Positions 1 through 56,152 of a stretch of DNA of 64,000 nt are shown here, one piece after another. Both the position numbers and the translations under genes were made by a program. The DNA is from Octopus vulgaris (lineage: Eukaryota): positions 5,642,001-5,706,000 of the forward strand of contig OX597818.1 of NCBI GenBank assembly GCA_951406725.2, in the 5' to 3' direction. Numbering within the stretch: position 1 is the stretch's first letter; every line of letters begins with the position of its first letter. Below the pieces are notes generated by a model, which saw only the letters and a list, made by a program, of their open reading frames with translations, did not search any database and was not told the origin of the DNA.

Positions 1-1033
1 AATAATGGTATATTTTAAGAGCGAGCAAATGGCAAGAAAGCACTCGCTAACCCCAATTAAGGCGAGTGATATTGTTCTCATACCTCCCTATTTGGGGCGG
101 AGGTCCGCCAAAATAAGAATCGAGGACATCCTCCAGAAATCGAAGTAAAGTGGTTGTTTCCAGCCTTACTAATAGGGCTGGAAGAAAAAATAAGTGTTAT
201 AGCGATAACAAAGATCAGGATGGAAAACTGGAGAGGTCAAACTCTTCAAGTGACAGTACAGGCGGCCCCAGAGACATTGGAGGAGGTCGCAGAAAATATC
301 AATTTCAGCGATGAAATAAATTTGCGGGTGGTGGTGGAGGGGCGAAAGCCTCAATGCTACGGATGTGGTGAGAAAGGCCACATCCGTATAGACTGCCCCA
401 CCCGCAAGAAAGAAGAAGAGAGAAAAAGGACAGAAGCAGAGGAGAAGAGGAAAAAAGAGACGGTGGAAGAGAAAACAACAGAAGAAGAAAATGCCTTCAC
501 ACTGGTGAGGCAGTAAAAAACACCAAAAAGAAAAAATGAAGACTTAAACCCACCCACCCCATGCACAAGCAAAAAGAAAAATAACACACAGGGGGGAAAA
601 TTTACCCCACCCAACCACGGTTCCCCACAAAAGAAAAAAAAAGAGAAGACCCCCCCCCCCCCAACCCAACCCGAACAACCACCCCCACCTCCCAGTGTCG
701 AACAATTCCTTCCCCTCCCAAACTACTCCCCGCCGTCCCCCCCATCGCCCCCACAAAGCCCAAAGAAAAAATGGAAGGTTTAGAGATGGTGTACATCTCA
801 ATAAACAAAGATAACGATAGGTTGGTGAAACTTATTAATGAAGCCCCAACAGCAGAAAAAATTCAAACTTACAGGGTATTGCCCAAAAATGTAGAAGTGT
901 CGACAGGTTAAATTACAACATTATACATGAGGAATACCCAAAAGACATCAGAGGTCCGCGTCTCGACTTGCACGAGTCGTTGTATAATGCGGACTTCCCC
1001 CCACGACAAACGGAAAAAAGGAAAACCAACTAA
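1..1033 (+). pseudogene. Copy A ORF1 (gag-like, zinc knuckle), disrupted and partial
   Basis: CYGCGEKGHIRIDC (CX2CX4HX4C) in ORF 154-516, then a Glu/Lys-rich and a Pro-rich (C-run) segment. C-terminus EYPKDIRGPRLD... resembles copy B. Contains internal stops and frameshifts. Confidence 0.8.
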
Positions 1034-1043
1034 AAGGTAGGTG

Positions 1044-4000
1044 ATGGCTCGTATTCATGTAGGGTGCATAAATGTGCGTGGCCTGGTGACGAACTGGAAG
1101 CAAGGGCGCCTCCTAAATGACATCAGGTCACCGGATTTAGATGTTGTTGTTGCCACAGAAACCTGGTTAAAGGGGCCAAGAGATCCGCTCCCGTTGTTCG
1201 GCGGTTACGAGAGAATTATCTCTCCGAGCCGTCTGTCCGGCGGAAGCGGGGTGTTGGTCCTGTGTAAAAAGAACCGGGTTTCTGAGAAAAAGTTGATTTT
1301 TTCAGATCCAGAAGGTAGACTGGTCGTGGTTGATTTGACGTTCAGTAGTCGTAAGACAATCAGGCTGGTTGCGGTTTACGCACCCCACAGTCAAGGGGAA
1401 CAAAGTGATTATTTTCGGAACCTTGGAAAGTTTCTGAGTACATCGCATCCTTTAGTTGTTTTAGGAGACTTCAACACAGTCTACGATGTGCGGGTAGACT
1501 CTGAGGGCTCGCGAACAGATAGGAAAGGAAATGCTTGCTTCCAGGATCTACTAAGACGTTTCGAGCTGGTAGATCCATATAGACTGGAACATCCGGACGC
1601 TCCATTGTGGACATGGTCAAACAGCGACGGATCTATCAAGTCGTACATAGACAGGATGTTAATTAGAAAAGTAGATAAGAAACTAGCTAGGAGTCCACAG
1701 CTCCACATGGTCAGCTACAGTGACCACAAGATGGTCACCTGTAGGCTAGACATAGATAAGACGAATAGAGGTCCTGGTTACTGGAAACTTAATACGTCCC
1801 TTTTGGCGATTAAGGAGCACAGTGACAGGATAAGGTTAATGATTCAGAGGGCTTTGACCGGAACCATAATTAACAACAAATGGTGGTATGCCCTCAAGCG
1901 AGCCATCAGATATGAGTCCATTAGATGTAGTATAGATCTAGTAGCTAGAGAGGCTAGAAGGGAATCAGCACTAGTTAAGGACTTAGAGGAAGCAATGCGA
2001 ACTGGCACAGCAGGCCAGGTGAAGGTCAAGAGACTGGTTTTAAACCAGCACCTCGAAGCCAAACACATGGGTTGCATTGTCAGGGCTAGACAACGTGCAA
2101 TGGGGAGCGAAGGAATTAATGCCGCGAGATGGGCCCGACTGGTGGAAGCCCAACGTGGCAACGATGCCACAATTCGATCTTTGACGAACCAACAAGGTAA
2201 GTTGATAGACGAGCCCGATGAGATGTGTGAAGCTTTTCAGGACCACTTCGCCCATCTCTTTGGGTGGAGCGGCGGACCGGATAGGAGGAGGGGCCTAACG
2301 GACCTCCTCGAAGGGCTGCCGTGCCTCTCGGAGCAGGACGCGAAGTGTAGTGAGGAGCCGATCACGCCTGGGGAAGTAATAGAGGCCATGGCTGACTGCG
2401 GCGCAGGTAAGGCGCCAGGACTGGATGGTCTACCCTACGAGCTTTATAAAAGTATGCCGGACTTGTTCGGGGACTTACTGGCGAACGTCTACGCGAACTG
2501 GCAGCAGAATGGGTTTATTCCCAGATCTGTGCGCCGGGGAGTGGTGACACTAATCGGGAAGGACCCAGACAAGGGGGATGTCATTGATAATTTTAGGCCC
2601 ATCACTCTGCTTAACGCAGAGCTGAAGATTTTAGCCAAAGTGTTATCAAACAGATTGGCGCGTGTCGCGGATGGACTAATAGGGAAGGCACAAACGTGTG
2701 CTGTACCTGGCAGGTCCATTCAGGATAATCTCCATCTAATCAGATACACTATAGAGGGAATTAATAGCGATCCCGGCAAGGGAGGGGCAGTGGTCCATTT
2801 AGACCAATCAAAAGCTTTCGATAGGGTCGACCATCATTACCTGGTGTCTGTTCTGGCTCAGTTCGGCCTGGGTCTTGGCTTCCTCAGGTGGATCATCGAA
2901 ATGTACGATAACGTCGACTTGGTAGTTCGGGTGAACGGCTTTATTTCTAAGCCGTTCAGAGTCAAATGCTCGGTTCGTCAAGGATGTCCACTCTCCCCGC
3001 TTTTGTATGTAGTGGCTCTCGAGCCGCTGCTGCGAAAACTGAGTGGCATCCCGAGGCAGCCAGGTCGTGGAATGTCGGTTTTGGCGTACGCGGATGACGT
3101 CACTATCATCGTGACTGAAGTGGACCTCCTACGTAAAGTAGGCAAGGCCATAGAGGTTTACGAGACGGTGACAGGAGCAAAAGTTAATCGCGAAAAGTCA
3201 GTCGGCTTGCAACTCGGCACCTGGAGAGGCAAGTCGATGCCTTCAGACAGCGTCGTGGGACGTTGGACGGAGGGTCCGATTAAGTTGCTAGGGGTTTGGT
3301 TTGGACCAGACAGCCAAATAGAGAAGAACTGGAGCGAGGTATCGAGCAGGGTGGCTGCAGTAGCCAAGACCTGGTCTTGGCGGTGGTTATCCCTGAAAGG
3401 TAGGGCGGAGGTAGCCAATGTGCTTATCGCATCGGTGATCACCTACCGCCTTACCGTCGTGCCTTGCCCGGATTCGTGGTTGACCAAGTTGGAAAGACAG
3501 CTCTTTCACTTTTTGTGGAAGAGCTCGAAACCACTTGTGAGACGCTCTGTTGTCAAAAACCGTTAAAGGGTGGACTAGGGATGCCGTGGCTAATGATGCG
3601 CAGAAATGCGCTGAGGTTAAGGCATATATGGCTCCATCTGGATGGTGAACGGGTGTGGTCTCCGTTGGCGAAACAGATGTTTCCCAAGTTCACCAGTTTT
3701 GGTGGACGGGAAGCCTGGTATAATCGCAGATCGAAGTTGGATACATGGTATACGGAGTGTCGCAAGGCACTCCGACTATTCCGTCGCTCGGGCAATGCTT
3801 GCGGCAGTGGTTCTACCGCTGTTTTCTATAGAGGGTTTGTAGAGGCCGGTTGCGATGATACGTTAGGGGAAACCCTAGGTTTCGACGATAATCAGCTGGC
3901 CAGTCTGTTCCAAGGTACATTTGGGCCGAGGATCCTGGATAATTTTCAGAAGTCCTTGGCTTGGCAGTGTTACCGAGGAGCCTTACCTGTTCGGGACAAA

Positions 4001-4435
4001 CTCGCAAGGCACGGTGGCCAAATCAGCCCGACCTGTCCGAGGTGTGGGCGAGACAGGGAAACCGTCTCGCACGCAGTCGTGCAGTGCTCGGAGGTGGCAG
4101 ACATGTGGATTTTTGCCAAACAACTGTTGTCAAGTGGAGGAAGAGTACAGCTATCGGCTGAATCCATTGTAAAAATTGACCCACCGGATTTCTTAACGAA
4201 AGAATGTAAGAATTGTTTTCTCTCTGTGGTTTCAATTGCGAAACAGGCAGTATGGAAGACGAGGATGAAAGGGGTGATAGCAGGCAACTTCATCTCTGGT
4301 TCTAGTCTGCTGGAATATTTTAAATTCCACCTAAAAAGACAAATAGAACTAGAGAGTAGGGGCCTGAGTAAGAAAGTGTTCGATGAAAGATGGAAGAATG
4401 TTGTGAGTAAAAGGACCCTCATGAATGCGAGGTAA
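1044..4435 (+). pseudogene. Copy A ORF2: APE endonuclease + reverse transcriptase + CCHC, with one frameshift near 3548
   Basis: Motifs NVRGL, TETW, VYAP, LGDFN, YIDR, SDH (APE); GPGYWKLN (Tx1-typical); KAPGLDG, FRPITLLN, LDQSKAFDRV, RQGCPLSP, AYADD (RT); CPRC...H...C. ORFs 1041-3566 and 3464-4435 join through an apparent 4-nt deletion relative to copy B. Confidence 0.93.
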
Positions 4436-4922
4436 GCCGGAAAAAAAAAGAAAAAAAATCCTAAGGTCAGTGTCGTGGCGGGGTTCGTGGGGTCCGTAAG
4501 CCCGCCCCACTCCATCTGTGAAATTGTTTGTGTAAAAAATGTCCTATCATCCGAATTATATAATCATTTGTAAATTTTTAATAGACCCCAACGCATATTC
4601 ATGTAAAATCATTCGTGATGTTCTGTCTTTATATGTATAACCGTATAGTGAATAAAGAAATAAGAGCTAACAATTCAATTTAATTGATTGCGTAGTGAGT
4701 TATTATATTTTCCTCTGTTATATTCTACTGTGTTTCTGATTGACTTTGTCTGTATTGTCTGTTGTTGTACAATTATTGTAATCAGCCTTCGTGCGAGGGC
4801 TTCGTGTTGGTGTTCCCCCCTCCGTGGGGGAAAAACTATCATTATTGCTGCATTTGAGGCTTTCAAAACCAAAACCGTTTTGTCGCGGTTGTGCTAAAGG
4901 CTTGTTAAGCCAGTTTTCGGAG

Positions 4923-6214
4923 ATGGACTCCCCCATCTCCTATTCACCAGTGTCAAGTGATGCAGGATCACCGGCGGTGTCGCCAAACAAAAAAGAAACC
5001 CCAGTACCAGCTAGAAAATTTTCTGAAGTAGCTGGAAAGAAAATTTAAAAAATTAACACTGAAGACCTGCAGAAATACGCAGACTGTTTGATAAAAGAGG
5101 GCACAGAAGTAACGGTGGTTACGAATGCCCAAAAGCAAGAAGAGATTGATAAAAAAAGAATAATATACAAGACTTTCAACATCACAAGTAAGTCTATACA
5201 AAGAATAGAGGAGAAAAAAAATAGAAAACTGCCTAAAGCCGATATGGGATAAGATTACGTACATCAATCGCGGGAAGAAATACGGCACAGTGGAGGTGAG
5301 ATTTGCAACAGAGGAGGTAGCCAAAAAGCTATCCATGGAACCCATGAAAGCGGAGAATATTGTTCTCCTCCCCCTGTATAGAGGAAAAAGAACCTCAAGG
5401 ATCACAATGCACAATATTCCGCCAGAAGCGGACGCCACATGTCTGGTGGCAGCAGTTATAGTAGGCCTGGAAGAAAAAATAAATATCCTCCAGGCCACAG
5501 TTGAGGAGGAAGAAAATTGGAAAGGGCAGCGTATAACGATAGCCATCCAGGCAGAGATACAAACCCTGGAAGAGATTCCGGAGACACTGAAAATCAGTGA
5601 GGAGGAACGAGTCACAGTCTTTGTAGAGGGCAGAAAGCCGAGGTGCTTCGGCTGCGGTAAGAAAGGGCATGTAAGGGCAGAATGCCAACCCAAACCGCAG
5701 GAAGCAGCTCAGCCAGGTGGAAGAACAGAAGAGGTGTCACCAGAAGTAGCGCCGGGCGGCCCAGAAGGGACGGCTGAAGGTGTGGAGGTGACAGAGGCAG
5801 CGGAACCGGCGGCGGAGGTGGCGGAGGAAACAAAGAGCGAGGAAACGAAAAATGAGGAGGGGTGGTCAAAAATCACTAGGAAAAAAAGAAAAACTGAAAG
5901 TAAACCAAAAGAAAAAAAGAGAGTCTTTGAACTCATTTATGGCCATTAAGGCCTCAAATAATAGACTCGGTAATGTGTTGGCAGCTATGGCCAAGGTAGA
6001 AAAAATTGGAAGAAAAAATGATTACATATTGTACAGAATAGGCCGGATGGATTACGGACGGATAAAATCCGAATTTCTTCATGACGTGGGCCCCCTAAGA
6101 ATGGATATATCATCACCATATATATTCGAGCGCCTGCGTCAGACTCCCCCACGAGGCCCAGAAAAAGAGGAAAAAAATGAAGAAGAGAAAGGAAAAGTCG
6201 AACCACTGATATAA
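4923..6214 (+). pseudogene. Copy B ORF1 (gag-like, zinc knuckle), frameshifted
   Basis: ATG at 4923 (MDSPIS...); YINRGKKYGTVEVRFATEEVAK; CFGCGKKGHVRAEC; split over ORFs 4791-5048, 5290-5949 and 5852-6214. Confidence 0.85.
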
Positions 6215-6222
6215 GGTAAGTC

Positions 6223-9200
6223 ATGGATTACATTTATGTTGGTTGTTTAAATGTGCGCGGCCTGGGATCAAGCTGGAAGCAAGGTCGCTTCCTTAATGAT
6301 ATCAGGTCGCGTAGTTTGGATGTTATTGTTGCTACAGAAACCCGTTTAGAGGGGCCAAGAGGTCTACTCCCGCTGTTTGACGGCTACGAGAGTTTTTTCT
6401 CTCCGGCCAGTCCTACAGGCGGGGGTGGGGTGTTGGTCCTATTAAAAAGAAACCGGGTTTTTGAGAAGAAGTTAATTTTTTCAGACCCAGAAGGCAGGCT
6501 GGTCGTCATGGATTTGACGTTCAGTAACGGTAAAGTTATCAGATTGGTTGCAATTTACGCACCCAACCAAAAGGGACAAAGTGATTATTTTCGAGAACTG
6601 GAAAACTTTCTTGGTACTTCGCATTCATTAGTTGTGCTAGGATACTTTAACACAATTTACAAAGCGGATGTAGATTGTGTTGGCTTGCGTCCAGATAGAA
6701 AAGGTAACATTGGCTTCCTAGAACTGCTAAGCCGCTTTGAGCTAGCAGATCCTTATAGGTTGGAATTTCCGAACGCTCCATTGTGGACATGGTCAAACAG
6801 CGACGGATCTTCCAGGTCATACATAGATAGGATACTAATTAGAAAAGTAGACAGAAAAATAGCTAAGTGTCCACAGTTTTACCTGGTCAGCTACAGTGAT
6901 CATAAAATGGTCACCTGTAAGCTTGACATATATAAAGTTAAAAATAGAGGCTCCGGTTACTGGAAACTTAACTTAATACGTCCCTTTTGGCGATTAAGGA
7001 GTACAGAGACCGGATTAGGACTATAATTCAGAGGGCGCTATCTGGTGCCATCATTAATAACAAATGGTGGTATGCCCTCAAGCGAGCCATCAAATTCGAG
7101 TCTATTAGATATAGCACAGGATTAGTGGCTAGAGAGGCTAGGAGGGAATCTACTCTAGTTAAGGAATTAGAGGAAGCCTTGAAAACTGGCTCTGCGGCTC
7201 AGGTGACGGCCAAGAGACTGGCGTTAAACCAGCACCTCGAGGCCAAACACATGGGCTGCATTATCAGGGCTAGGATCCGCGCAATGGGTTGTGAGGGAAT
7301 CAACGCCGTGAGATGGGCGCGAGTGGTGGAAGCTCAGCGTGGTAACGACGCCACGATTCGATCTATGACGAACCAACAGATGAGTTGATAAACGAGCCCG
7401 AGGAGATGTGTGAGGCCTTTCAGGAGCACTTCGCTCAGCTTTTCGGTGAGTGCGGCGGACTGGATAGGAGGCGAGCCTTTACGGTCCTCCTCGATGGGCT
7501 GCCGCGCTTATCGGGGTGAGATGCGGAGGGCTGTGAAGGGCCAATCACGCCTGGGGAGGTGGTTGAGGCGATGGCGGACTGCGGCGCGGGCAAGGCGCCG
7601 GGTTTAGATGGTCTACCCTATGAGTTATATAAGAGTAGGCCAGACTTGTTCGGGCACCTACTGGCGGAGGTCTATGCGAACTGGCAGCAGAACGGGTTCA
7701 TACCCAGATCTGTGCGCCGGGGAGTAGTGACACTCGTCAGAAAGGACCCGAGCAAGGGGGAGTGCATTGATAATTTCAGGCCCATCACTCTGCTACACAC
7801 AGAGTTGAAGATTTTGGCCAAAGTGTTATCGAAAAGATTGGCGCGTGTCGCGGATGATCTGATCGGCGAGGCACAGACATGTGCCGTTCCCGACAGAACC
7901 ATTCAGGATAATCTCCATCTTATGCGGTACACTATAGAGGGGCTTAATAGTGATTCTGGCAAGGGTGGGGCACTGGTCCATTTAGACTAATCTAAAGCAT
8001 TCGATAGGCTCGACCATCGCTACCTGGTATCTGCCCTGGCCCATTTCGGGCTGGGCCTTGGCTTCCTCAGGTGGATTATCCAAATTTACGACAACATCGA
8101 CTCGGTAGTTCGGGTGAACGGCTTCTTGTCGAAGCCATTCAACATCAAGCGCTCGGTTCTTCAAGGGTGTCCGCTCTCCCCGCTTTTGTACGTGATGGCT
8201 CTTGAGCCATTACTGCGAAAACTGAGCGGCATCCCGAGACAGCCAGGTTGTGGAAAATCGGTGTCAGCGTACGCGGATGACATCACCATCATCGTAACCG
8301 AAATGGATCACCTACGTAAAGTAGGCAAGGCCATAGAGGTTTACGAGACGGTGACAGGAGCAAAGATTAATCGCGAAAAGTCAGTTGGCTTGGAACTCGG
8401 CACCTGGAGAGGCAAGTCGATGCCTTCAGACAGCGTCGTGGGACGTTGGACGGAGGGTCCGATTAAGTTGCTAGGGGTTTGGTTCGGTCCAGACCACCAA
8501 ATAGAGAAGAATTGGGGCGAGGTATCGAGCAGGGTGGCTGCAGTAACCAAGACCTGGTCTTGGCGGTCGCTATCCCTGGAAGGGAGGGCGGAGGTAGCCA
8601 ATGTGTTTATCGCATCGGTTATCACCTACCGCCTTTCCGTCGTTCCTTGCCCTGATTCGTGTTTGATCAAGTTGGAAAGACAGCTCTTCTACTTCTTGTG
8701 GAAGGGCGGGAAACCACTTGTGAAACGCTCTACTTGCTGTCAACAACCGTTAAAGGGTGGGCTAGGGATGCCTTGGCTGATGATGCACAGACATGCGCTG
8801 AGGTTAAGACATCTGTGGCTCTACCTGGATGGTGAACGGGTGTGGTCTCCACTAGCAAAACTTATGTTTCCCAAGTTCACTAGTTTCGGTGGATGGGAAA
8901 CCTGGCTGAATCGTAGATCGAAACTGGGCACATGGTACACGGAATGTCGCAAGGCTCTCCTGCTATTCCGTCGCTCGGGCAACGCCTGCGGTGGGGGTTC
9001 CACCACATTCTTCTATAGAGGGTTGGTAGAGGTGGAATGTGAAGATACCTTGGGGGAAACCCTAGATCTCGACGATAATCAGCTGGCCAGTCTGTTCCGA
9101 CGTACGCTCAAGCCGAAGACACTGGACAACTTCCAGAAGTCTCTGGCATGGCAATGCTACAGAGGAGCTCTACCTGTTCGGGATAAACTCGCAAGGCACG

Positions 9201-9622
9201 GTGGCCAAGACAGTCCGATATGTCCAAGATGCGAGCGGGATAGGGAAACCGTCCCGCACGCTATTGTTCATTGTTCGGTCGTGTCTGAGGTGTGGGTTTA
9301 TTCCGAACAGCTGTTGTCAAGCACACGAAGAGTACAGCTGTCGACTGAGTCTATTACAAAAATTGACCCACCAGATTTCTTCGCGAAAGAAGGTAAGAAT
9401 TGTTTTCTCGTTGTAGTAGCAATTTCGAAAGAGGTGATATGGAAGACGAGAATGAAAGGTTTACGGTCAGGCAAGTTCATCTCCGGCCCTGGATTGATGA
9501 ATTCCTTCATCTTTCACCTGAAAAGGAAGATAGGACTGGAGAGAAAATGCCTGATTAAGAGAGTGTATGAAGAACGATGGAAAGATGTAGCACGAAAGTT
9601 GCGAGTGGATGATACCACATAA
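6223..9622 (+). pseudogene. Copy B ORF2 (APE-RT-ZnF), multiply disrupted
   Basis: Colinear with copy A ORF2. GDFN changed to GYFN, frameshifts near 6970 and 7380, stop at 7988-7990; AYADD intact in ORF 8114-9622. Confidence 0.93.
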
Positions 9623-9854
9623 ATGTAAAACTAGACGAAACCAAAGTATCAGTGGGGAGGCGGGGCTCGTGGGGTCCGAGCTAAACCCGCTCCCACTCCA
9701 TCCGTAATGTCTTCCGGTCTGTTCCCCATTCGATTTTTTCTATTTTTGTAATTTTTGAAAATTTTAAAATTCGCCTTTTTTGTAAACCCATTCGTATATC
9801 TGACCCCACATCAGATTCTATGTTCGCCCCTTGTGGGTAATAATAAAACAATTC

Positions 9855-10764
9855 AATTTTTCATTGAGTTGGTTAGTTATTTTTGTGTGAACAGTTAAAT
9901 TGAAAAAAGTTGAATCGCGTGAGGCGCTTGCCGCCACGTGTTGGAACCTTATTACAGAAGTTGCGTCGACCCTCAAGTCATTGAGACTTACGCGGGGGTC
10001 GCCTCAACGGAAAGTGATGAGCCTCTTATAGTAAGAGAAGTGTTTTTTAGAAAAGAACAATTAATGGATTATGAAAAATTCATCAAAAGGGAGGGTGACA
10101 GCGTAAAGCTGGTCCCACCTGCTGAAACGATAGAAGAGAAAAATAATAAGACTATCACGTACAGGACGCAAGACAGAATTACAAACAAATTGGTGAGAGT
10201 AACGATAGAAGAAATTGAGAAATGTCTGGGGGACATTATGAAAAAGCAACGTACGTGAACAGAGGAAAGAAATATGGTACGGTGGAGGTGAGATGCGCAA
10301 CAAAAGAAGTTGCGGCCTCGTTAGCTTCCACTGTTTTGAAAGCTGAAAACTTCACCATGTGGCCAACATATAAAGGACGAAGAGGGGTTCGGGTAAAGAT
10401 ACCAAAGGTGCCTCCAGAAATAAAAACAGAAATGCTGGCAACAGCTATCCTAGGGTCAGCAAAGGACGAAATAGAAATAGGCTCGATCAAGGAGACCAAT
10501 GTTGTGAACTGGAAGGGATTCGGAGTGGAGATATGGCTGATGGCCAAAAAAGAAGACATAGAAAGGTTTCCCTTCCAAATTGAACTTGAAAATGAGAGAA
10601 CAGTGAGCGTAATTGTAGAGGGGTGAAAGCCGAACTGCTACTTGTGTGGGTCAAGAGGACACAAAAGAAAGGAATACAAAAGAAAGGATTACAAAAGAAA
10701 GGAATACATCAGATTGTATTGTCCCCTCTACGTTCGCCCCTTGTGAGTAATAATAAAACAATTC
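9855..10764 (+). mobile_element. Tx1-like copy C: ORF1-only internally deleted derivative that keeps the 3' tail
   Basis: YVNRGKKYGTVEVRCATKEVA and VIVEG*KPNCYLCGSRGH are homologous to ORF1 of A and B. Joined after the knuckle, via three copies of ACAAAAGAAAGGA(A/T)T, to a 3' tail nearly identical to that of B. Confidence 0.85.
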
Positions 10765-10839
10765 CAGTCTGTTATATATTTTGAGTATTGTTATCACTAG
10801 CGATATCAAGATATAACTTTGTATTTTGCATTTTATGTG

Positions 10840-10934
10840 TAGATGTATATATATATATAGATGTACACATATATATATACACATATATACATGCACTAGC
10901 ACTATGACCCGGCAACGACTGGTCTTTAATGCTA

Positions 10935-10994
<60 letters not shown>

Positions 10995-11140
10995 ATGTAT
11001 ATATGCGTATGTATATATACATATATATATATGTGTGTGTATGTGTGTATATACATACATAATACATGCATACATACATATATATATATACATACATACA
11101 TACAATACATGCATACATATAAATATATATATATATATAA
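10840..11140. repeat. (TA)n / (TACA)n microsatellite
   Basis: Directly visible. Confidence 0.95.
10895..10936. mobile_element. Minimal Helitron/Helentron-end-like element
   Basis: ACTAGCA...TGCTAGT inverted ends, an internal GC hairpin (GACCCGGCAACGACTGGTC) and a terminal CTAG, sitting in TA repeats. Confidence 0.4.
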
Positions 11141-11199
11141 AATTAAATAATATAGGTAGAAATTGATGTTAATGAATTATGGCCAGTGGCTTAGCATAT

Positions 11200-12620
11200 T
11201 TAAAACTCCGAAGATTAAAAAATGTGTTCGTTGCAGCTACCAATAGCATCAATAGTCGAAATATATAAGCTGGGGAAGATACGGACGGTCATGATGCTGA
11301 GAGAATCGAAGGATATGGAAATCAGGCGTAACCCACCAGAGGTGAAAACAGCCAGGAAGTGGAAAGCAGAAGCAGAAACTGACAACATCTTGTCTTCTCT
11401 TATACACAGAGATATGGTGGGAGCAACGCAGAACCATCGGAAAGGACTTGGTTTCGGCACAGATCAGTTCAGACCGTTTGCAAGCATGATGCAGAGTGAA
11501 CGCAGATCTGTTGTTAGCAACAGCGTCAAAACAAGAGAAGCAGAGAGAAGAGAGCTTCATTTGATCCGATGTGTTCATCAAGATCAGATGACGAGATGGG
11601 AAGAACATGTTGTTGAGAGGAAGATAAGTTGGGATGAGATGTGGAAGTGGACGACATCTCGGCTGAGTTTCCTGATTCGTTCATCTTATGATGTTTTGCC
11701 ATCATCTACGAATCTAGTTAGATGAAACGTCTTAGAGAATGACATCTGCAAATGTGGAAAGGTCGGTACACTAAAACATATTCTTTCTAACTCTTATTTA
11801 GCATTGAACAGGTATACATGGAGGCACAACTTGGTCCTTAAGGTTATCTTCAATGCTATAAAGAATCAAATTCATCTCAACAACACTGAGGAAAAACCGT
11901 TAACAGTACCATCAAGAGATTTCATTACCTTCGTGCGACCAGGTCAGCGGATCCGTTTGAAGATGATCAAGAAACTTCCTGAGAAAAATGAGAAGTGGAA
12001 CGGCTAAAGGGAGGTAACTGCAGATTTACCTGGGTGCCACATTTTCTTTCCCATCCCAGTTTCGAAAAAAACAGATATTTTGATGTGGTGTGAAAGAAAG
12101 AAAGTTGTAAATATAGTTGAGCTAACGGTTCCTCATGAAATTATATGGACGCCGCTCGGGCTCGAAAATTGAACCGTTATGAAAATCTCCTCGAGAAATG
12201 TGAAGACGCAGGCTGGAAAGCGGAACATTTTCCTATCGAAGTCGGATGTAGAGGGTTTGTTGGACACAGCGTGAGACGACTGTTGTTATCGATAGGCTTA
12301 ACTCTTCGTAAAGTCAATACCACCATGACTGATATCCAATCTACAGTGGAGAAGGCTAGCCACTGGATTTGGTTAAAAAGAGACGATGAGCGATGGCTAG
12401 AAGTATATTGAGTTCTTCATAACCAGCTCATCTAGCAAGCGGGGCCTCATATCAGTGAGGGTGGGTGGGTGGTGCGCATTGATGCCGTCGAGAGGTAGGC
12501 CCCGAAGCGGCGCGCATTCTCTCTTGATGACCCCATACACTTGGTAGCTTCCGGTATACGGAGCTTTTAACTGGTAGCACTTGCATGTGCAAGTTGTTTG
12601 CAAGACATCAAAATTAATAT
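11200..12620 (+). mobile_element. 5'-truncated HERO-clade non-LTR retrotransposon (restriction-like endonuclease type), decayed
   Basis: LQLPIASIVEIYK...KTARKWKA...DMVGATQNHRKGLG; RLSFLIRSSYDVLP; CKCGKVGTLKHIL; RYTWRHN; DIL...VELTVPHE; RKLNRY; FPIEVGCRGF. Stops and frameshifts present; structured 3' UTR. Confidence 0.82.
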
Positions 12621-12713
12621 TGGATATATATGTATATATATATATACATACATATATATATATATATATATGTATGTATATATATATATGTATGTATATA
12701 TATATATGTATGT

Positions 12714-12768
<55 letters not shown>

Positions 12769-12807
12769 TATGTATATATATGTATGTATATATATATATA
12801 TATTATG

Positions 12808-12919
<112 letters not shown>

Positions 12920-13069
12920 AGTGTATATATATATATGTATATATATATGTATATATATATGTATATATATATATATATGTGTATATATATGTATATATAT
13001 ATGTGTATATATATGTGTATATATATATGTATATATATGTGTGTATATATATGTGTATATATATATATG

Positions 13070-13114
<45 letters not shown>

Positions 13115-13153
13115 TTTTATATGTATATATATATGTGTATATATATGTATATA

Positions 13154-13262
<109 letters not shown>

Positions 13263-13275
13263 GTATATATATATG

Positions 13276-13306
<31 letters not shown>

Positions 13307-13399
13307 GTATATATGTATGTATATATATGTATATATGTATGTATATATGTATATATATATATGTATATACATATATATATATATATGTATATATATATG

Positions 13400-13474
<75 letters not shown>

Positions 13475-13501
13475 ATATATATATGTGTATATATATGTAT
13501 A

Positions 13502-13552
<51 letters not shown>

Positions 13553-13665
13553 GTATATATATATATGTATATATATGTGTATATATATGTATATGTATAT
13601 ATGTATATGTATATATGTATATGTATATATGTATATGTATATATGTATATGTATATATGTATATG

Positions 13666-13713
<48 letters not shown>

Positions 13714-14276
13714 ATATATGTATATATATATATGTATATGTATATATGTATATATATATATGTATATGTATATATGTATATATATATATGTATATGTATA
13801 TATGTATATGTATATATGTATATATATATATGTATATATATATATGTATATATATATGTATATATATATATGTATATGTATATATATATGTATAAAAATA
13901 TATATATATATATATATGTATATATATGTGTATATATATGTGTATATATATGTGTATATATATATATGTGTATATATATATGTATATATATATGTATATA
14001 TATATATGTATATATATATATGCATATATATATATGTATATATATATATGCATATATATATATGCATATATATATATGTATATATATATATGCATATATA
14101 TATGTATATATATGTATATACATATGTGTTTTTATATGTATATATATATGTGTATATATATGTATATATATATATGTATATATATATGTATATATATATG
14201 TATATATATGTATATATATATGTATATATATGTATATATATATATGTATATATATGTATATATATATATGTATATA

Positions 14277-14345
<69 letters not shown>

Positions 14346-14372
14346 GTATATATATATGTATATATATAAATA

Positions 14373-14417
<45 letters not shown>

Positions 14418-14670
14418 GTGTGTATATATATATATATGTATATATATGTGTGTATATATATATGTGTATATATATATGTATATAAATATATATGTATATA
14501 TATGTGTATATATATATGTATATAAATATATATGTATATATACATATGTATATATATATGTATATATATATATGTATATATATGTGTATATATATGTATA
14601 TATATATGTATATATATGTATATATATGTGTATATGTATATGTATATATGTATATGTATATATGTATATG

Positions 14671-14715
<45 letters not shown>

Positions 14716-14881
14716 AAAGTCAAATGCGATACAATAAAATTAATTATTATCGCCGATGTTCTAGCACACGCCATATATTATTCATATATAAGTACATTAA
14801 AAAGCGAAGTGTGTACTAGATACACAAAAGCTGGATAAATTTAATGAGATGAAAATTAAAAACTTTTACAAACTTAGTTCT

Positions 14882-14954
14882 TCTTATACTGCAGTTTCGC
14901 CTATTTCAGCAATAAAAATAATATTTATTTACTCAGGTAGGCTCTTCAGTAAGA
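14882..14954 (-). ncRNA. Minimal type I hammerhead ribozyme (Penelope pLTR type)
   Basis: Minus strand: UCUUA CUGAAGA GCCUA [long AU loop] UAGGC GAAA CUGCAG UA|UAAGA. Intact core, perfect stems I and II, palindromic stem III. Confidence 0.85.
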
Positions 14955-15161
14955 TTCCTGTTATTATGGGAAGCGCAAATCAATAGAGGCACGTGCGTCT
15001 ATTAAATTGCTCTTTCTAAACTATTCAAATCACTGCGCAGACTCAGAACGTACCCGACAAAATAGGCTTTTCTGGTATATCGTCTAACGCTCAAAAATTT
15101 ATCGAGAAAATACGTAAACAATATGTATATATATATATATGTATATATATATATGTATATA

Positions 15162-15218
<57 letters not shown>

Positions 15219-15367
15219 ATATATATATGTGTATATATATATGTATATATATGTGTATATATATATATGTATATATATATATATGTATATATACATATGT
15301 ATATATATATGTATATATATATATGTATATATATGTGTATATATATGTATATGTATATATGTATATG

Positions 15368-15398
<31 letters not shown>

Positions 15399-15413
15399 GT
15401 ATATATGTATATG

Positions 15414-15520
<107 letters not shown>

Positions 15521-15938
15521 ATATATATATGTATATGTATATATGTATATATATATATGTATATATATATATGTATATATATATATGTATATATATATAT
15601 GTATATATATATATATGTATATGTATATGTATATATATATGTATAAAAATATATATATATATATATATTATATATATGTGTATATATATGTGTATATATA
15701 TATGTATATATATATGTGTATATATATATGTATATATATATGTATATATATATGTATATATATATATGCATATATATATATGTATATATATATATGCATA
15801 TATATATATGCATATATATATATGTATATATATATATGCATATATATATGTATATATATGTATATACATATGTGTTTTTATATGTATATATATATGTGTA
15901 TATATATGTATATATATATGTATATATATATGTATATA

Positions 15939-16002
<64 letters not shown>

Positions 16003-16161
16003 GTATATATATATATGTATATATATATATGTATATATATATATGTATATATATATATGTATATATATATATGTATATATATATGTATATATATGTATAT
16101 ATATATGTATATATATAAATATATATGTGTATATATATATATGTATATATATATATGTATA

Positions 16162-16194
<33 letters not shown>

Positions 16195-16417
16195 GTGTGT
16201 ATATATATATGTGTATATATATATGTATATAAATATATATGTATATATATGTGTATATATATATGTATATAAATATATATGTATATATACATATGTATAT
16301 ATATATGTATATATATATATGTATATATATGTGTATATATATGTATATATATATGTATATATATGTATATATATGTGTATATGTATATGTATATATGTAT
16401 ATGTATATATGTATATG

Positions 16418-16464
<47 letters not shown>

Positions 16465-16630
16465 AAAGTCAAATGCGATACAATAAAATTAATTATTATC
16501 GCCGATGTTCTAGCACACGCCATATATTATTCATATATAAGTACATTAAAAAGCGAAGTGTGTACTAGATACACAAAAGCTGGATAAATTTAATGAGATG
16601 AAAATTAAAAACTTTTACAAACTTAGTTCT

Positions 16631-17690: not shown

Positions 17691-17753
17691 TCTTCGAAAA
17701 GGGAATGTATGACAAGTATTATCTTTGAGAGACAGAGATAATTAAATGTAAAC

Positions 17754-18110
17754 ATGGTACTACATGTAGGATCTGTCTACCTACATAATAGTTGCATTGA
17801 AGCCACTTTAATAACAGGCGAACAAGAAGGAATGCACTTCTTAGTACCCCGCATAAAACTGGCTAAAAATAACTTCCATCTTCCTTTCATTTCGGAAAGA
17901 GTTACGTTCCCTGTAAGGCTGTGCTACTCTCTTACAGTAAATAAGGCACAGAGACACATATTTAACAACATTGGAATATATTTGCCACATCATGTGTTCA
18001 GTAATGGGCAATTATATGAGGAATTTACTAGGGCCTGGAAATTATCTGATGGGGCTGGAAGAGTAGTTGAAACCAAGAGACAAGGTAAACAACAAGAAAT
18101 ATTTTGTATA
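17754..18110 (+). mobile_element. Helitron RepHel PIF1-helicase C-terminal fragment (decayed)
   Basis: IEATLITG...LVPRIKL...LPF...FPVRLCYSLTVNKAQ...GIYLPHHVFSNGQLY...TRA matches PIF1 motifs V-VI of Helitrons. Confidence 0.85.
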
Positions 18111-18440
18111 AATAAGTGCTGTGAGAGTAAATCTAGAATTTTATTCATCTCATGTATACGTATATCATTTAAGTTACATTCAGTTCAAACAGTTTGCAAA
18201 GCCTCTTCTGTGATTACATACAGTGATTTCATATACATTTAAATTTGTTCGTTTTGTATTTCTGTTTCTATATGTATCTCATACAAGGTTCGTAGAGTAC
18301 CGTTTGTGATGTAGAATGTATCTATTTCAGTAAGATCACATTTTTGTTGTTTTACGTACTTGTCATAAGCATATGAAATGTTGCTTGTATTTATTTGCTT
18401 TGTAAATATGTAATAAAATTGTAAATATTAAATATTTAAT

Positions 18441-20863: not shown

Positions 20864-21054
20864 ACTTTCTACCGTGTGTACGAGGCCAGCCATTTTACGG
20901 GAAGTGGAAATTGATTAACATCGAGCCCGGCATCCAAATGGTACTTATTTTATCGCTGTCAACCTTAGTGGCATTTGAACTCAGAGCATATAAACCTGCA
21001 GAAATACTAGAATTTTGTCCGGCGCGGTAACGATTCTCAGGGCTCACTGCCTTA
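20864..21054 (-). mobile_element. Decayed tRNA-derived SINE, head related to the 55736 family
   Basis: Reverse complement gives GGCAGTGAGC...AGAATCGTTACCGCGCCGGACAAAAT...GAGTTCAAATGCC...GATAAAATAAGTACC. Confidence 0.65.
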
Positions 21055-25714: not shown

Positions 25715-26042
25715 TCCCCCATCATGGCTTGACAACCAGTTTTGGTATGTTTGCGTCACCGTAATCTAGCGATTCGGCAAAAGTGATCAGACAGATTAAG
25801 TACCAGGCTTGGCGAAAGAAAAAAACTCTTCAAGGTGGTGCCCCAGCATGGCCGGAGTCTAATAATTGAAACAAGTAAAATATATAAAAAAAAACAGTTT
25901 GCTTCTTGTATGTGGACCGAGGTCAACATTCGTTTCATCCTTTCGGTATCGATAAAATGAGTATCAGTTGAACACTGAGGTTGAATGAAACGACTCACAC
26001 CAACCTTCGAACCTGCTAGTCCTGTTTCCAAATTTGAAATCA
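25715..26042 (+). mobile_element. Two adjacent decayed SINE fragments
   Basis: 25715-25880 resembles 50100-50290 (-); 25915-26042 contains CCGAGGTCAAC...TTTCATCCTTTCGGTATCGATAAAATGAGTA, shared with the 55736 family. Confidence 0.6.
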
Positions 26043-31438: not shown

Positions 31439-31673
31439 TGAATAACAATAATAATAATAACATCGAGAAATAACTTAGGAATGAGAATCAAAGTTGTGTT
31501 TAACAATAATCAATATAAAGATAAATATCCGTCAAATGTAAATGATGTACATAATTCATCTCTTAATAACAGAACTGAAAATGAAGTAGATTTCTGTTAT
31601 TATATTTACGAGATGATGACTTATGTACATTATTTACACTTGAATGAAATTTGTCCTCATCTTTTTTGTTGTT

Positions 31674-31719
31674 AGCACAACGTTTCGGCTGATGTACCCT
31701 CCAGCCTTCATCAGGTGTC
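31674..31719 (-). ncRNA. Minimal type I hammerhead ribozyme
   Basis: GACAC CUGAUGA A GGCUG [10 nt] CAGCC GAAA CG UU|GUGCU; palindromic AACGUU stem III. Confidence 0.75.
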
Positions 31720-31777
31720 TTGGGGAAATTTCGAACCTGGGTTCTCATTCCTAAGGTATTTTACGATGTTGTTGCTG

Positions 31778-31950
<173 letters not shown>

Positions 31951-34900
31951 TTTCCTTCTTCAAATTTTCTTCCGTTTCTCGCCGAGTGTTTTCCGTACAC
32001 GTAGGGCAGAGAAGCTCATTGTATGCATTCCCAGATTACACACGCAAATTCGCAGGTAAAATATGTATTTAAAAAATTAATGAATAAATAACTTCATAAA
32101 TGGATGTTGTTTTCACAGCGATAATGCTCTTCTCAGTATACGTGCCGTTCCAGTTAACACGATTTTTTGTACTTCCTGTAAGCCTGGTATAATTTTCAAA
32201 TAGGTTTCAGTACGTTTTTTTTTATCATTCCTAGAGATACTACAATCACTGGTACTGTAGTCGCCTTGAGATGTCACATTTTTTTCAATTTCTATTACCA
32301 AGACTTTATATCTACTAATCTTGTCAAATTCTTTCGCCGTTATATTGTGATCGCAAGGAATACTCATGTCAATTAATAAACACATCTTTTTTTGTCTGAT
32401 CTTTTATGATAATATCCGGTTTATTAGCTTTTATAGTTCTGTCGGCATGTACGGGGAAGTCCCATAGAATCGACACATTTTCTCCCTCAATCACAGCTTC
32501 AGGATGGTGTTTATACCATCTGTCAGCGGTTTTGATTTTAGAATGCCGACATATTGTCCAGTGTAAATACTGGCCGACTCTGTCATGTCTTGCTTTATAT
32601 TCTACAGGTGCTAAGACTCTACAGCCTGAGATTAGGTGGTCTATTGTTTCAATCTCATCGTTACAGAATCGGCATTTTGGGTCAGTTCCATTTTTTATCA
32701 CATTGGCTTGGTAGTTCCGCGTTAATAAGCATTGGTCTTGAGCAGCTAATATGAAACCTTCACTCACCGCTTTCAGCCTTGAGCTTCATAACCATTGGTG
32801 CGTGTGTTTCTGGTCGACATCAGCTCGTTTGCTACGGGCCACATACTTGCCATACAGAGGTTTCTGTTCCCATCTGCTAGCTAATTTTTCGTGCGCTTTT
32901 GTCTTTGCAATCAATTATATTTTCTTTACAGCAGCAGTTGGCGCATTTCCTTCAGCCTGATCAATCTGGTAGGTATCTAAGAGATCAGTAGCGACGTTTT
33001 GCTCTCTTTCAGAATAGAGTGAAGATTTTTTTCAGTCTTTCATGTTTTTCAACATGTTTTAGCATCCAATCGTGGGTTGCTTCAAGGTATTTGGCCAAGG
33101 TATTTGTGGTGGTTTTGTACGTAAGTTCAAACTGGATCAAACCTCGTCCTACCTGAACTCTGAGAAGGTAAAAACGATCCACGCCTGCTTTTGGACGTGC
33201 ATCTTATTGCTTGTGGATTAGTCTGTCAATTTTCATCATTTCACTGGTATTCCAGTTAAGCACATTGAAGCTATAAAGAACAATTAGGACTGGTAAGAAA
33301 TTTATGGCTAACACATTATTATATGCATTCAACTCAGACTTCAAGATTGCTCGAACTCTTCGATAACATTCCTTCCCAACCTTCTCCTTCATGCTCGCAT
33401 GCTGGAAACCAGAGCCTTCATTTATTCCTAGGAACTTATAGGTTTGTTCCTGCTCAAGTTCCTTTATTACTCTTTCGACGTCTAATTCGATTGAATTAGA
33501 TGAATTGAAATTGAAATTTACCAATTGAAATTTACAAATTTACCAATTGAATTGAAATTTACCAATTTCCCTTTCTTTAAAGTGGCTTTGGCATACTTTT
33601 CAAGGCCAAACTCCATCCCGATATCATCACTGAATCCTTTCACAGTATGTAAGCGTCCTTCAAGCTCTTCATCATCTTTGCCATATAGTTTTAAGTCATC
33701 CATATAAAATAGATGGCTTATTTTCCTGTTGTCAATTTTGTAGCCATATCCAGTTCTATTCAGTTCACTTGAGAGTGGTATTAGTGCTATGCAGAAAATT
33801 AGTGGTGAAAGTGAGTCACTTTGGAAAATTCCACAGTTTATGCTAATATTATCTGAGCGCAATACTCCATTAGAATTATATAATTGGAGCTTCGTGTTCC
33901 ATAGAGACATATACTTTAAAAAATCTGAAATCACAGGAGAAATTTTGAAAATGTCCAGCGACTTCAGAATCCACGAATGGAGTATGCTGTCAAAGGCTTT
34001 TTTTTTATCAATCCATGAAGAGTTGAGGTTTCTGCGCTTGTTATGGCAGTTCTCAAGGATCATGCGATAAATTAGGAGCTGATCTTTGCATCCGTATGAG
34101 CCTTGTCTCCATCCTTTTTGTTCAGTGGGAATGAGGTTATTCTCTTCCATAAATGTATATGTTTTCTCCACTAGATAGATGTCAAAATATTATAGGTAGT
34201 AGACAAACGTGTTATAGGCCGGTAGTTGATTTTGTACTTCGTTTCGTTATTTTTGGGGAGGAGGTAAGTAATACCATTTGCCATCCAATGGGGAGTTTTT
34301 TTCGGGTCTTTCATAATACTATTAAGTATTATTGCTAAAATTTTGTGTGCGGACGAGTGTGATGAGAGCCAGAAATTTGGTACTCTGTCAATACCAGGGG
34401 ATTTACCCTTATGAGTCTTCGTTAGTGCCCTACTTAGGTCGGCGATTGAGATGTCTTCCCATACCTGTTCTTGCAAATCTTTGTAAGCATCTTGGGTGCG
34501 TTTGATCCAGTCTCCATTTTCATTGTATGGTTTCTCATCACTCCAGATCACTTTCCAAAAGTTTTCAATTTCCTCCATTAGGGGTGGATTTTCAGTGGTT
34601 ATTTTTTCTTTCCCTACTTCCCTGTAAAATGATTTGGCATTGGATTTGAACATCTTATTTTGTTTGTAGCATTTGATTCTTTTCTCAAATATGTGTATTC
34701 TCTGAGCTTTTGTCTGAACTTTTTGTTTAAGTGTTTCTTTCGCTGAGATTAGTTTTTCTCTTGTTGAGAATCCATATTTTCTCACAATCTTCCTGCCTTT
34801 TCTTGATCTTACACTATTTCCAGAAATTAGCTCAGTTAATATTGATATCTCCCTTCGCAATGATTCAATTTCAGTTTCAATTCTACTCCTCCAGTTTGAT

Positions 34901-35745: not shown

Positions 35746-35789
35746 AGTTAAATTATAATTAAATTTTCATTTTTTAAAAATATTTATTT

Positions 35790-36506: not shown

Positions 36507-36558
<52 letters not shown>

Positions 36559-36564
36559 TTTATT

Positions 36565-36640
<76 letters not shown>

Positions 36641-36695
36641 GTGTTGTTGTTGTTGTTGCTGTTGTTGTTGTTGTTGCTGCTGCTGTTGTTGTTAT
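36507..36695. repeat. (ATT)n-(GTT)n compound microsatellite
   Basis: Directly visible. Confidence 0.95.
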
Positions 36696-37041
36696 TTATG
36701 TCTGAGAAGGATTACAGGATAGGTTTCAAAACCTAGCGTCGAATTTTTTGACACAAATTTAAGTTTTCTGTAGGCAGAATAGTGACAAAGTTATTTTGCA
36801 AGCCCACATCATCCTACATTTACTTCCACCGCTGCTACATGCATGGAAGTACAATTGTGGAAGCCCCCATACGTATGTACCCAAGCATGAGTTGATATAA
36901 CGACAATGTCAGTAATAATAATTATATATATATATAATAATATATATTAAGTATGATTGAGCAAACTGTATCCTAACACTGTATCTGTAACAATAATAAT
37001 AATTAGAAAGTAACTAAATTATAATGATTTAATTAATTTAG

Positions 37042-37299
<258 letters not shown>

Positions 37300-37300
<1 letters not shown>

Positions 37301-51390: not shown

Positions 51391-51397
51391 GGGATAG

Positions 51398-51627
51398 GGC
51401 GGCAAGCTGGTGGAATCGTTAGCACGCCGGGCGAAATGCTTAGCGGTATTTCGTCTGTCCTTACGTTCTGAGTTCAAATTCCACCGAGGTCAACTTTGCC
51501 TTTCATCCTTTCGGGATCGATAGTACCAGTTACGCACTGGAGTCGATGTAATCGACTTAATCCGTTTGTCTGTCCTTGTTTGTCCTCTCTATGTTTAGCT
51601 CCTTGGGGATAGTAAAGAAATAGGTAT
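51398..51627 (+). mobile_element. tRNA-derived SINE monomer (same family as the dimers)
   Basis: GGCGGCAAGCTGG head, B box GAGTTCAAATTCC, central GCCTTTCATCCTTTCGGG domain, tail ...TAGTAAAGAAATAGGTAT. Confidence 0.85.
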
Positions 51628-51636
51628 CAGTGCTTT

Positions 51637-53640: not shown

Positions 53641-54007
53641 AAACAAGGACAGACAAAGGGATTAAGTCGATTACATCGACCCCAGTGCGTAACTTGTACT
53701 TAATTTATCGACCCCGAAATAATGAAAGGCAGAGTCGACCTCGGCGGAATTTGAACACAGAACGTAACGGCAGACGAAATACCTATTTCTTTACTACCCA
53801 CAAGGGGCTAAACACAGAGAGAACAAACAAGGACAGTCAAACGAATGAAGTCGATTATATCGACACCAGTGCGTAACTGGTACTTATTTAATCAACCTGG
53901 AAAGGATGAAAGGCAAAGTCGACCTCGGCGGAATTCGAACTGAGAACGTAGCGGCAGACGAAATATGGCTAAGCATTTCACCCGGCGTGCTAACGTTTCT
54001 GCGAGCT
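53641..54007 (-). mobile_element. Dimeric tRNA-derived SINE
   Basis: Reverse complement of ~55742-56109, including the same internal dimer junction. Confidence 0.9.
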
Positions 54008-55735: not shown

Positions 55736-56152
55736 GGCGGAGAGCTGGCAGAAACGTTAGCACACCGGGTGAAATGCTTAGCCGTATTTCGTCTGCCGCT
55801 ACGTTCTCAGTTCGAATTCCGCCGAGGTCGACGTTGCCTTTCATCCTTTCCGGGTTGATTAAATAAGTACCAGTTACGCACTGGTGTCGATATAATCGAC
55901 TTCATTCGTTTGACTGTCCCTGTTTGTTCTCTCTGTGTTGAGCCCCTTGTGGGTAGTAAAGAAATAGGTATTTCGTCTGCCGTTACGTTCTGTGTTCAAA
56001 TTCCGCCGAGGTCAACTCTGCCTTTCATTCTTTCGGGGTCGATAAATTAAGTACAAGTTACGCACTGGGGTCGATGTAATCGACTTAATCCCTTTGTCTG
56101 TCCTTGTTTGTCCCCTTTATGTTTAGCCCCTTGTGGGCAATAAATGAATAAG
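55736..56152 (+). mobile_element. Dimeric tRNA-derived SINE with a Tx1-like 3' tail
   Basis: Monomer 1 is 55736-55966; a 5'-shortened monomer 2 is 55967-56152. A/B boxes; a central domain recalling the Meta-SINE core (from memory, unverified); tail TGTCCCCTTTATGTTTAGCCCCTTGTGGGCAATAAA. Confidence 0.9.

Follow-up and report, generated by a model that had tools for sequence, protein, structure and literature searches.

Which long interspersed element (LINE) copies the transfer RNA (tRNA)-type short interspersed elements (SINEs) of the octopus is a question raised by a stretch of 64,000 nucleotides (nt) of Octopus vulgaris DNA (contig OX597818.1, positions 5,642,001 to 5,706,000 of the forward strand; "the window" below). 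Its bases 1-10756 are three L1/Tx1-type LINE copies (A, B and C) lying head to tail, and near 56 kilobases (kb) it carries a dimeric tRNA-type SINE with a similar 3' tail. An earlier note on this DNA proposed the two as a LINE/SINE partner pair, and we find that reading supported: the shared tail is terminal in both the LINE and the SINE, which is the 3'-end homology looked for in such a pair, it belongs to the LINE family at large, and target-site duplications follow it. The SINE tail probably derives from this L1/Tx1-type lineage, whose ORF2 protein (ORF2p) would copy the SINE through recognition of a predicted hairpin.

The shared tail in the window

The LINE array and its surroundings are made up as follows, all on the + strand (ORF, open reading frame; UTR, untranslated region).

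1..4663, LINE copy A, 5' end outside the window; Pfam APE, RVT_1, zf-RVT and zf-CCHC
70-516, ORF1 remnant of copy A with a CCHC knuckle (open reading frames, Pfam)
1044-4435, ORF2 of copy A, with a single frameshift near 3545-3566
4436-4663, 3' UTR of copy A
4467..4519 in A and 9649-9705 in B, GC-rich segment of the proximal 3' UTR kept in both copies (82% over 57 nt), with high contig depth at 9657-9707
4619..4663, tail of copy A, a diverged relative of the shared tail, ending in AATAAAGAAATAA and lacking the CTTGT hairpin
4664..4676, A/B spacer GAGCTAACAATTC, a likely target-site duplication, 12 of 13 letters equal to the target repeat
4677..9846, LINE copy B, full length and decayed; ORF1 pieces at 5209-6214, ORF2 at 6220-9622 as four open pieces, 3' UTR at 9623-9846
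9807..9846, tail of copy B, with an intact GCCC-CTTGT-GGGT hairpin at 9826-9838, ending in (TAA)3
9847..9854, B/C spacer AACAATTC, a likely target-site duplication
9855..10756, LINE copy C, internally deleted, its 5' region and ORF1 piece (10219-10626) joined directly to the last ~50 nt of tail
10705..10756, tail of copy C, SINE-like from 10714, with one C-A mismatch in the hairpin stem
10757..10800 (extending at least to 10800), AACAATTC and the 3' remainder of the high-copy repeat that hosts the array (contig depth)

The SINE content of the window amounts to three tail-bearing copies and two old fragments.

55736..56151, + strand, dimeric tRNA-type SINE; monomer 1 at 55736-55967, head-truncated monomer 2 at 55968-56151, the shared tail ending each
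53641..54007, - strand, second dimeric SINE, truncated at both ends, 97.5% identical to the 55.7-kb copy over 367 nt; monomer-1 tail at ~53782-53830
51395..51627, + strand, SINE monomer or 3'-cut dimer, 84% to monomer 1; tail hairpin degenerate
25917..25995, + strand, old SINE body fragment without a tail
20908..21036, - strand, old SINE head/body fragment without a tail

The tail strings quoted in the earlier note lie where it placed them (copy C from 10720, copy B at 9817-9843, the SINE from 56109), and the further SINE tails that it listed were confirmed at about 55921-55967, 53782-53830 (- strand) and 51578-51624. The C tail aligns to the SINE tail at 56104-56143 with 83% identity over 41 columns (E 8e-5 in the window). 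It is identical to the B tail at 36 of 38 positions, the B tail being shorter by about 12 nt of C, and is 76% alike to SINE monomer 2, which equals the likeness of monomer 2 to monomer 1. The tail of copy A is equally close to both groups, at 59-64% to the SINE tails and 54-60% to the B and C tails; the last G of its "AATAAAGAAATAAG" is likely part of the target duplication. We compared the LINE 3' regions with the four SINE tails, taking 1,000 dinucleotide shuffles of each region as the null, and obtained z values of 7.2-11.7 for C, 3.2-7.4 for B and 2.7-3.6 for A; for three R4/Dong 3' UTRs from the same DNA, z lay between -1.2 and 1.5. When 1,020 tiles of the window were searched, the best tile outside the SINEs was the B or the C tail for all four SINE tails, and B and C share one single-nucleotide difference from every SINE tail. 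By alignment, shuffles and window tiles alike, the shared tail is real.

The earlier note had allowed that the tail might be absent from the LINE family, with B and C merely abutting SINE remnants. Contig linkage and the target duplications directly after the tails speak against this. Logan contigs of four sequencing runs (X1, X2, X7 and X14, bearing three species labels) were mapped to 9300-10800 at 80% likeness, a range that leaves the A tail outside. In X1 the depth, summed over contigs, is 73-135k over the end of ORF2, 125k in the conserved UTR segment and 7-13k in the variable UTR; it then rises to 84.5k in the B-tail bin and 142.5k in the C tail at 10733, and just past the B tail it is 213. 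The same tail peak followed by a drop is seen in X2, X7 and X14. Among the indel rows listed (12 of 27) the extra base of the SINE-type tail is missing, which suggests that the mapped tails are mostly of the LINE type. At least three X2 contigs and at least two X7 contigs join B-type UTR at 9724 to C-type tail at 10708/10714, with intervening letters. The depth pattern fits the 3' end of a family and not chance neighbours, and judged by these contigs copies B and C end in a tail of the LINE itself and do not merely border on remnants of a SINE.

The target repeat AACAATTC stands directly behind all three LINE tails. We interpret the array as the product of three insertions, one after another, into the same site of a high-copy repeat, with a duplication apparently left each time; on this reading the tail belonged to the copied RNA. 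In X1 the depth reaches 559k at 10779-10800, about five times that over the ORF2 end, and at least 18 contigs run left from 10757 with other letters, their loose ends finishing GGGCT; no second copy of the repeat was found within the window. Rfam gave no match to a small nuclear RNA, tRNA or spliced-leader target in 1-12000 (microsatellite-driven microRNA noise fell below the gathering score) or in the host loci described below, and ARAGORN found no genes in 13 loci, so that an RNA-gene target of the Keno/Dewa type is unsupported.

Only the SINE at 55736..56151 has intact ends. It is flanked by a likely 17-nt duplication (55718-55734 and 56151-56167, 14 of 17 letters matching; p ~0.001 against random pairs in the local AT-rich region), which begins (A)G directly behind the AATAA end; in this it resembles the spacers of the LINE arrays, which begin with G and are 13-17 nt long. 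In monomer 2 the head is missing its first ~50 nt. A-box-like and B-box-like strings were read by eye at 55745-55820; Rfam gave no match there at E up to 5. The two dimers, 97.5% alike, inverted and 1.7 kb apart, may not be independent. This SINE probably belongs to the octopus OK/OR1/OR2 tRNA SINE group. Local inverted duplications occupy 52480-53070, 54350-54870 and 53641-56151, the last including the two dimers in opposite orientation, and a different SINE-like repeat (51628-51790, - strand) abuts the 3' end of the SINE at 51395-51627.

Copies A and B are 80% identical in DNA over 3.7 kb and 86% identical in the reverse transcriptase (RT), while ORF1 of C is 41% identical to that of B over 150 amino acids (tblastx). 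In Pfam, ORF2 has an N-terminal apurinic/apyrimidinic endonuclease, an RT and a C-terminal CCHC motif (zf-RVT), the L1-clade arrangement, and it is preceded, again in keeping with that clade, by a separate ORF1, with remnants in A, B and C and a zf-CCHC in A. A zinc-knuckle ORF1 is what we take to be a Tx1 trait. The best whole-length match in the PDB is human L1 ORF2p (E 6e-62, against 8e-25 for R2), a ranking that is not a full clade test, as the PDB holds no CR1, RTE or L2 ORF2. The name Tx1, within the L1 clade, is that of the earlier note; our homologue searches gave no named Tx1 reference, and the relatives in our tree are unnamed.

The hairpin in the window and in related elements

The GCCC-CTTGT-GGGY hairpin that had been described near the end of the tails is intact in copy B and in three of the four SINE tails; it has a C-A mismatch in copy C, is degenerate in the 51.6-kb SINE and is absent from copy A. 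Relatives of the LINE were found in a scan of GTDB contigs, which gave 45 loci, 44 of them on animal-host DNA mis-binned in two metagenome-assembled genomes (G001 and G002). These assemblies with cephalopod-like host DNA are labelled Arenicella and Rhodospirillales, the DNA in question being contigs C3-C19 of G001 (loci L004-L046) and C16 of G002 from ~258 kb. It carries Sepioth-SINE1/2A copies matching the consensus in the supplement of PMC5786205, and the host is thus likely a squid or a cuttlefish; the window SINE had no match in either of the two assemblies, each only partly host DNA. The LINEs there are often intact, with an open ORF2 of 1,158 amino acids, and form one clade with A and B (support 100/99, ~51% RT identity) in an RT tree of 29 rows that excludes short hits and in which the relatives are unnamed. 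Just one homologue carries a species name, that of the octopod Argonauta hians (46%). Pattern scans of DNA gave no matches in viral contigs and none in metagenome contigs, and a metagenome protein scan gave three distant loci that were not useful.

Whole contigs of G001 are head-to-tail arrays of intact L1/Tx1-type elements with a period of ~6.4-6.8 kb and up to about ten units. Their spacers are G-initial and ~15-17 nt long, and differ between arrays. The window array shows three apparent insertions, with target-site duplications, at one site of a high-copy repeat; as the squid-side spacers vary from contig to contig, this points to re-insertion at a site and not to one fixed target. The spacer of the C6 and C10 arrays, AGAATAAGCCTACAATTCA (L024:7080-7100), resembles the A/B junction of the window, GAAATAAGAGCTAACAATTCA (4657-4677), through a shared target or by chance.

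The 3' ends of these relatives run, in order, through a pyrimidine tract, AAGGC-CTYGT-GCCTT, a second hairpin and AATAAA. A CCTYGTG hairpin of at least four pairs with AATAAA behind it is present at 36 of the 42 ORF2-bearing loci, which overlap, come from one assembly in 41 cases, and represent one lineage in at most two hosts and not independent cases; four of the remaining six have a CTAGT loop and two a 3-pair stem. The end pattern matched 62+1 times, against none in reversed controls. Across 22 selected rows, four of the five stem pairs change on both sides between families, and 86% of stem cells are paired, against 61% in shuffles (none of 500 reaching the observed value) and 28-43% in slid controls.

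The same loop occurs in several non-autonomous units. The 3' part of Sepioth-SINE1/2A, copies of which lie beside the related LINE arrays, contains TGAC-CTTGT-GTCA, with the same loop and C-G closing pair; this part is labelled "unknown3'" in PMC5786205. A 145-nt tRNA-type SINE consisting of head and tail only (L108, L109, L111, L112 (-)) carries TGGC-CTTGT-GCCA, a second hairpin and an end of TAAATTACTAC. At L087:17520-18900 there are tandem GC-rich non-coding units of 286 nt (two) and 388 nt (two) with duplication-like spacers, their tails comprising a CTTGT hairpin, a second hairpin and AAATA; these units are likely non-autonomous passengers of the same machinery. A count of loop hairpins in 494,862 bases, about half of them bacterial, gave 29: 11 in Sepioth tails, three in tails of the 145-nt SINE, one in a LINE tail, eight in Sepioth-SINE2 heads, five in bacterial DNA and one unassigned. 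In the squid SINEs that carry the loop, the last letters are GTAAATA or GTAAATTACTAC instead of AATAAAG. Since these SINEs share only the 7-nt core and the two-hairpin layout with the squid LINE tails and differ in their ends, they form a weaker link than the 40-nt octopus match.

Behind the ORF ends of RTE, R4/Dong and Hero elements the motif was absent from all 31 stretches, some of which stop short of the true 3' end. On the sampled copies we rejected these three clades as tail donors, the window z values for R4/Dong pointing the same way. The possibility, raised in the earlier note, that another clade fits the SINE tail better thus did not hold for the R4/Dong, RTE and Hero fragments, and this outcome is limited to those clades. 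Three literature leads were also dropped. A near-match to the C tail in a scallop SINE supplement lies in the tRNA-derived head of one decayed copy and was set aside as chance; the CCTTGTG of BivaV-SINE3 is in its body, not its tail; and "TX1" in PMC4176376 is the name of a mutant, not of an element.

Other repeats in the window include LINEs of presumed R4/Dong type at 31940-38050 (- strand). There are at least three distinct copies, each with a TAA/CAA microsatellite at its end, and the one at ~31940-35500 is nearly complete. At 11219-12420 (+ strand) there is a fragment of a restriction-like-endonuclease LINE, presumably Hero/NeSL-like, and at 31640-31760 (- strand) a CTGATGA...GAAAC motif with a short stem, which we take to resemble a Penelope-type hammerhead remnant. 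An ORF at 17742-18242 (+ strand) resembles, by eye, the C-terminus of a Pif1-like Helitron helicase, and near it lies ~4 kb of (TA)n-type satellite (12400-16500) with repeated flanks.

Readings of the shared tail

In the mechanism that we favour, ORF2p would bind a short stem closed by a C-G pair around a CUYGU loop, reading the loop specifically and the stem by its shape, as in L2 elements, where specificity lies in the loop and one stem can replace another (PMC4176376). It would then nick the target, and reverse transcription would be primed at the A-rich end behind the hairpin (AATAAA or TAA repeats). An RNA polymerase III transcript of the SINE with the same tail could be copied in trans, leaving a duplication of 13-17 nt, and re-insertion of the LINE at the junction of an earlier copy would build head-to-tail arrays with target-duplication spacers, C in the window array being likely the oldest and A the youngest. 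The parts of this reading differ in strength. Transfer of the tail from LINE to SINE is very probably the right direction, and it is likely that this lineage mobilises the SINE; dependence of mobilisation on the hairpin is only somewhat favoured.

A number of points weigh against this reading. The compensatory stem changes hold across families, yet the hairpin is absent from copy A, the least decayed of the three, broken in C by its mismatch and weak by energy: in folding energy the short tails do not stand out from shuffled sequences (z -0.3 to -1.6), and the short tail of B favours another fold. Because the covariation test used related rows aligned by their loop, its controls lean towards structure, and the eight Sepioth-SINE2 heads with the same 7-mer hairpin mean that the motif can arise away from tails. 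Of the older G002 copies, three were examined, and each has either a TTCAT-type loop or no loop at all. The SINE has no counterpart of the proximal UTR segment that A and B have in common, and the LINE array sits in a specific repeat, the SINE copy not. The depths given above are not copy numbers. Finally, a search with a C-terminal motif found no CR1 or L2 ends, and the clades compared are RTE, R4/Dong and Hero. The stringent hairpin recognition proposed in the earlier note gains support from covariation, and copy A, without the hairpin, stands against it.

The lack of the loop in A and in older squid copies, the AATAAA behind the hairpin in the relatives, and the weak folding energy would also suit a tail that came from this lineage under relaxed recognition, in which the A-rich end or a poly(A) added after AATAAA suffices and the hairpin serves 3'-end processing, RNA stability or a host protein; most L1-clade families, moreover, share no SINE tail (PMC3472496). 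A constant loop with a compensated stem, kept across families ~49% diverged in the RT and in several non-autonomous families, is rather the pattern of stringent LINEs (PMC4176376), and we regard relaxed recognition as unlikely. It is quite doubtful that the real driver is an unsampled clade (CR1, L2, Nimb/I, Proto2 or similar), the L1/Tx1 elements sharing the motif by exchange or convergence. The divergent ends of the squid loop SINEs would fit such a driver, as would the CR1 content of O. vulgaris (62 megabases (Mb), against 56 Mb of L1-Tx1; PMC13282606 supplement) and the CR1, CR1-Zenon, L2 and Nimb partners of bivalve SINEs (PMC11481361). Against it, only B and C within the window match the SINE tail, the match of ~40 nt goes beyond the loop, and no RTE, R4 or Hero stretch had the motif.

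Reversal of the transfer, with the B/C sub-lineage taking its tail from the SINE by template switch or 3' transduction and the SINE relying on some other driver, is improbable. The SINE is indeed closer to B and C than to A, and octopus SINEs far outnumber these LINEs (PMC13282606); the loop is nonetheless present in related LINEs of a host where the window SINE found no match (neither of two partly host assemblies), and the UTR of A is collinear with that of B up to the tail (66% over 178 nt) and still ends like the SINE. Chance likeness, or SINE remnants abutting the LINE copies, is very improbable and has been largely refuted by contig depth and linkage and by the shuffle tests: the match is short, at most 40 nt, and marginal for A, but z reaches 11.7, B and C hold a difference in common against all SINE tails, there is no SINE body on the upstream side, the tail is followed directly by the target repeat, and other genomic copies show the same linkage.

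Wider still, and tentatively, we suggest that one L1/Tx1-type lineage, stringent for a C(CUYGU)G hairpin, could have been the driver of major SINE families in the octopus branch and the squid branch alike, a possibility to which we give less than even credence. If so, the driven families would be the octopod dimeric SINE and, in decapodiforms, Sepioth-SINE1/2A, the 145-nt tRNA SINE and the 286/388-nt units. No earlier partnership of an L1-clade element in animals would then have depended on a stem-loop, and the lineage would be a living counterpart of the stringent ancestor that has been proposed for L1.

Comparison with known partner pairs

As a rule SINEs borrow the structured 3' tail of a LINE, and the L1 clade is the standing exception. 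A survey of 58 shared-tail LINE/SINE pairs includes three of the L1 clade, in maize/sorghum and Chlamydomonas (PMC3472496, PMC3747384), thus in plants or algae only; more than 800 L1-clade families yielded no others, and the survey does not decide between a stringent and a relaxed ancestor of L1 (PMC3472496). In O. vulgaris, SINEs account for 11.7% of the genome, most of them without a classification (PMC13282606). No partner LINE is named for octopus SINEs in the accessible portions of PMC13282606, PMC8967140 and PMC10294476, nor for OK/OR1/OR2 in those of PMC4824008 and PMC4758252; for bivalve SINEs, the partners given are CR1, CR1-Zenon, L2 and Nimb (PMC11481361, PMC4824008, PMC4758252). 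A full-text literature search found no L1/Tx1 shared-tail pair in octopus or another animal, Repbase, Dfam and some older papers, which may already note one, lying beyond its reach. If our reading is true, a likely driver can now be named for the octopus SINEs and possibly for the Sepioth-SINE1/2A tail. Sepioth-SINE1/2A has the same loop and closing pair and a head and body unlike the window SINE (no match).

The earlier note set the pair against mammalian L1, which needs only poly(A), but the case is less unprecedented than that contrast implied, given the maize/sorghum and Chlamydomonas pairs (PMC3472496, PMC3747384) and crocodilian SINEU (PMC4494074). Maize LINE1-1_ZM with ZmSINE2 and ZmSINE3, and Chlamydomonas L1-1_CR with SINEX-3_CR, are alike in that L1-clade LINEs and tRNA SINEs share a 3' end, of 45-80 nt, and the monocot pair also has a hairpin with conserved loop and compensated stem (PMC3472496, PMC3747384). 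Those pairs belong to plants and a green alga and have a UCU loop and poly(A) or poly(T) ends (PMC3472496, PMC3747384), whereas the octopus pair is animal, with a CUYGU loop, AATAAA or (TAA)n ends and a LINE in head-to-tail arrays. In crocodilian Tx1-Mar/SINEU, too, a Tx1 group is inferred to mobilise SINEs and inserts into a repeat, with tandem copies around a target duplication (PMC4494074). That partnership rests on common targets and ages, no LINE having matched the 3' half of SINEU, and SINEU has U1/U2 heads and poly(A) ends (PMC4494074), in contrast to the shared 3' sequence with hairpin and the tRNA-type SINE of the octopus. The L2 LINEs ZfL2-1, ZfL2-2 and UnaL2 offer the working model, in which the region between endonuclease and RT reads the loop specifically and the stem as structure; there recognition has been shown by assay (PMC4176376), and the octopus pair is known from sequence alone. 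The lineage offers a short conserved loop, natural SINE passengers and, in a related host, copies whose ORF2 is open and intact, and so the question of the ancestral L1 becomes directly testable with the L2 assays.
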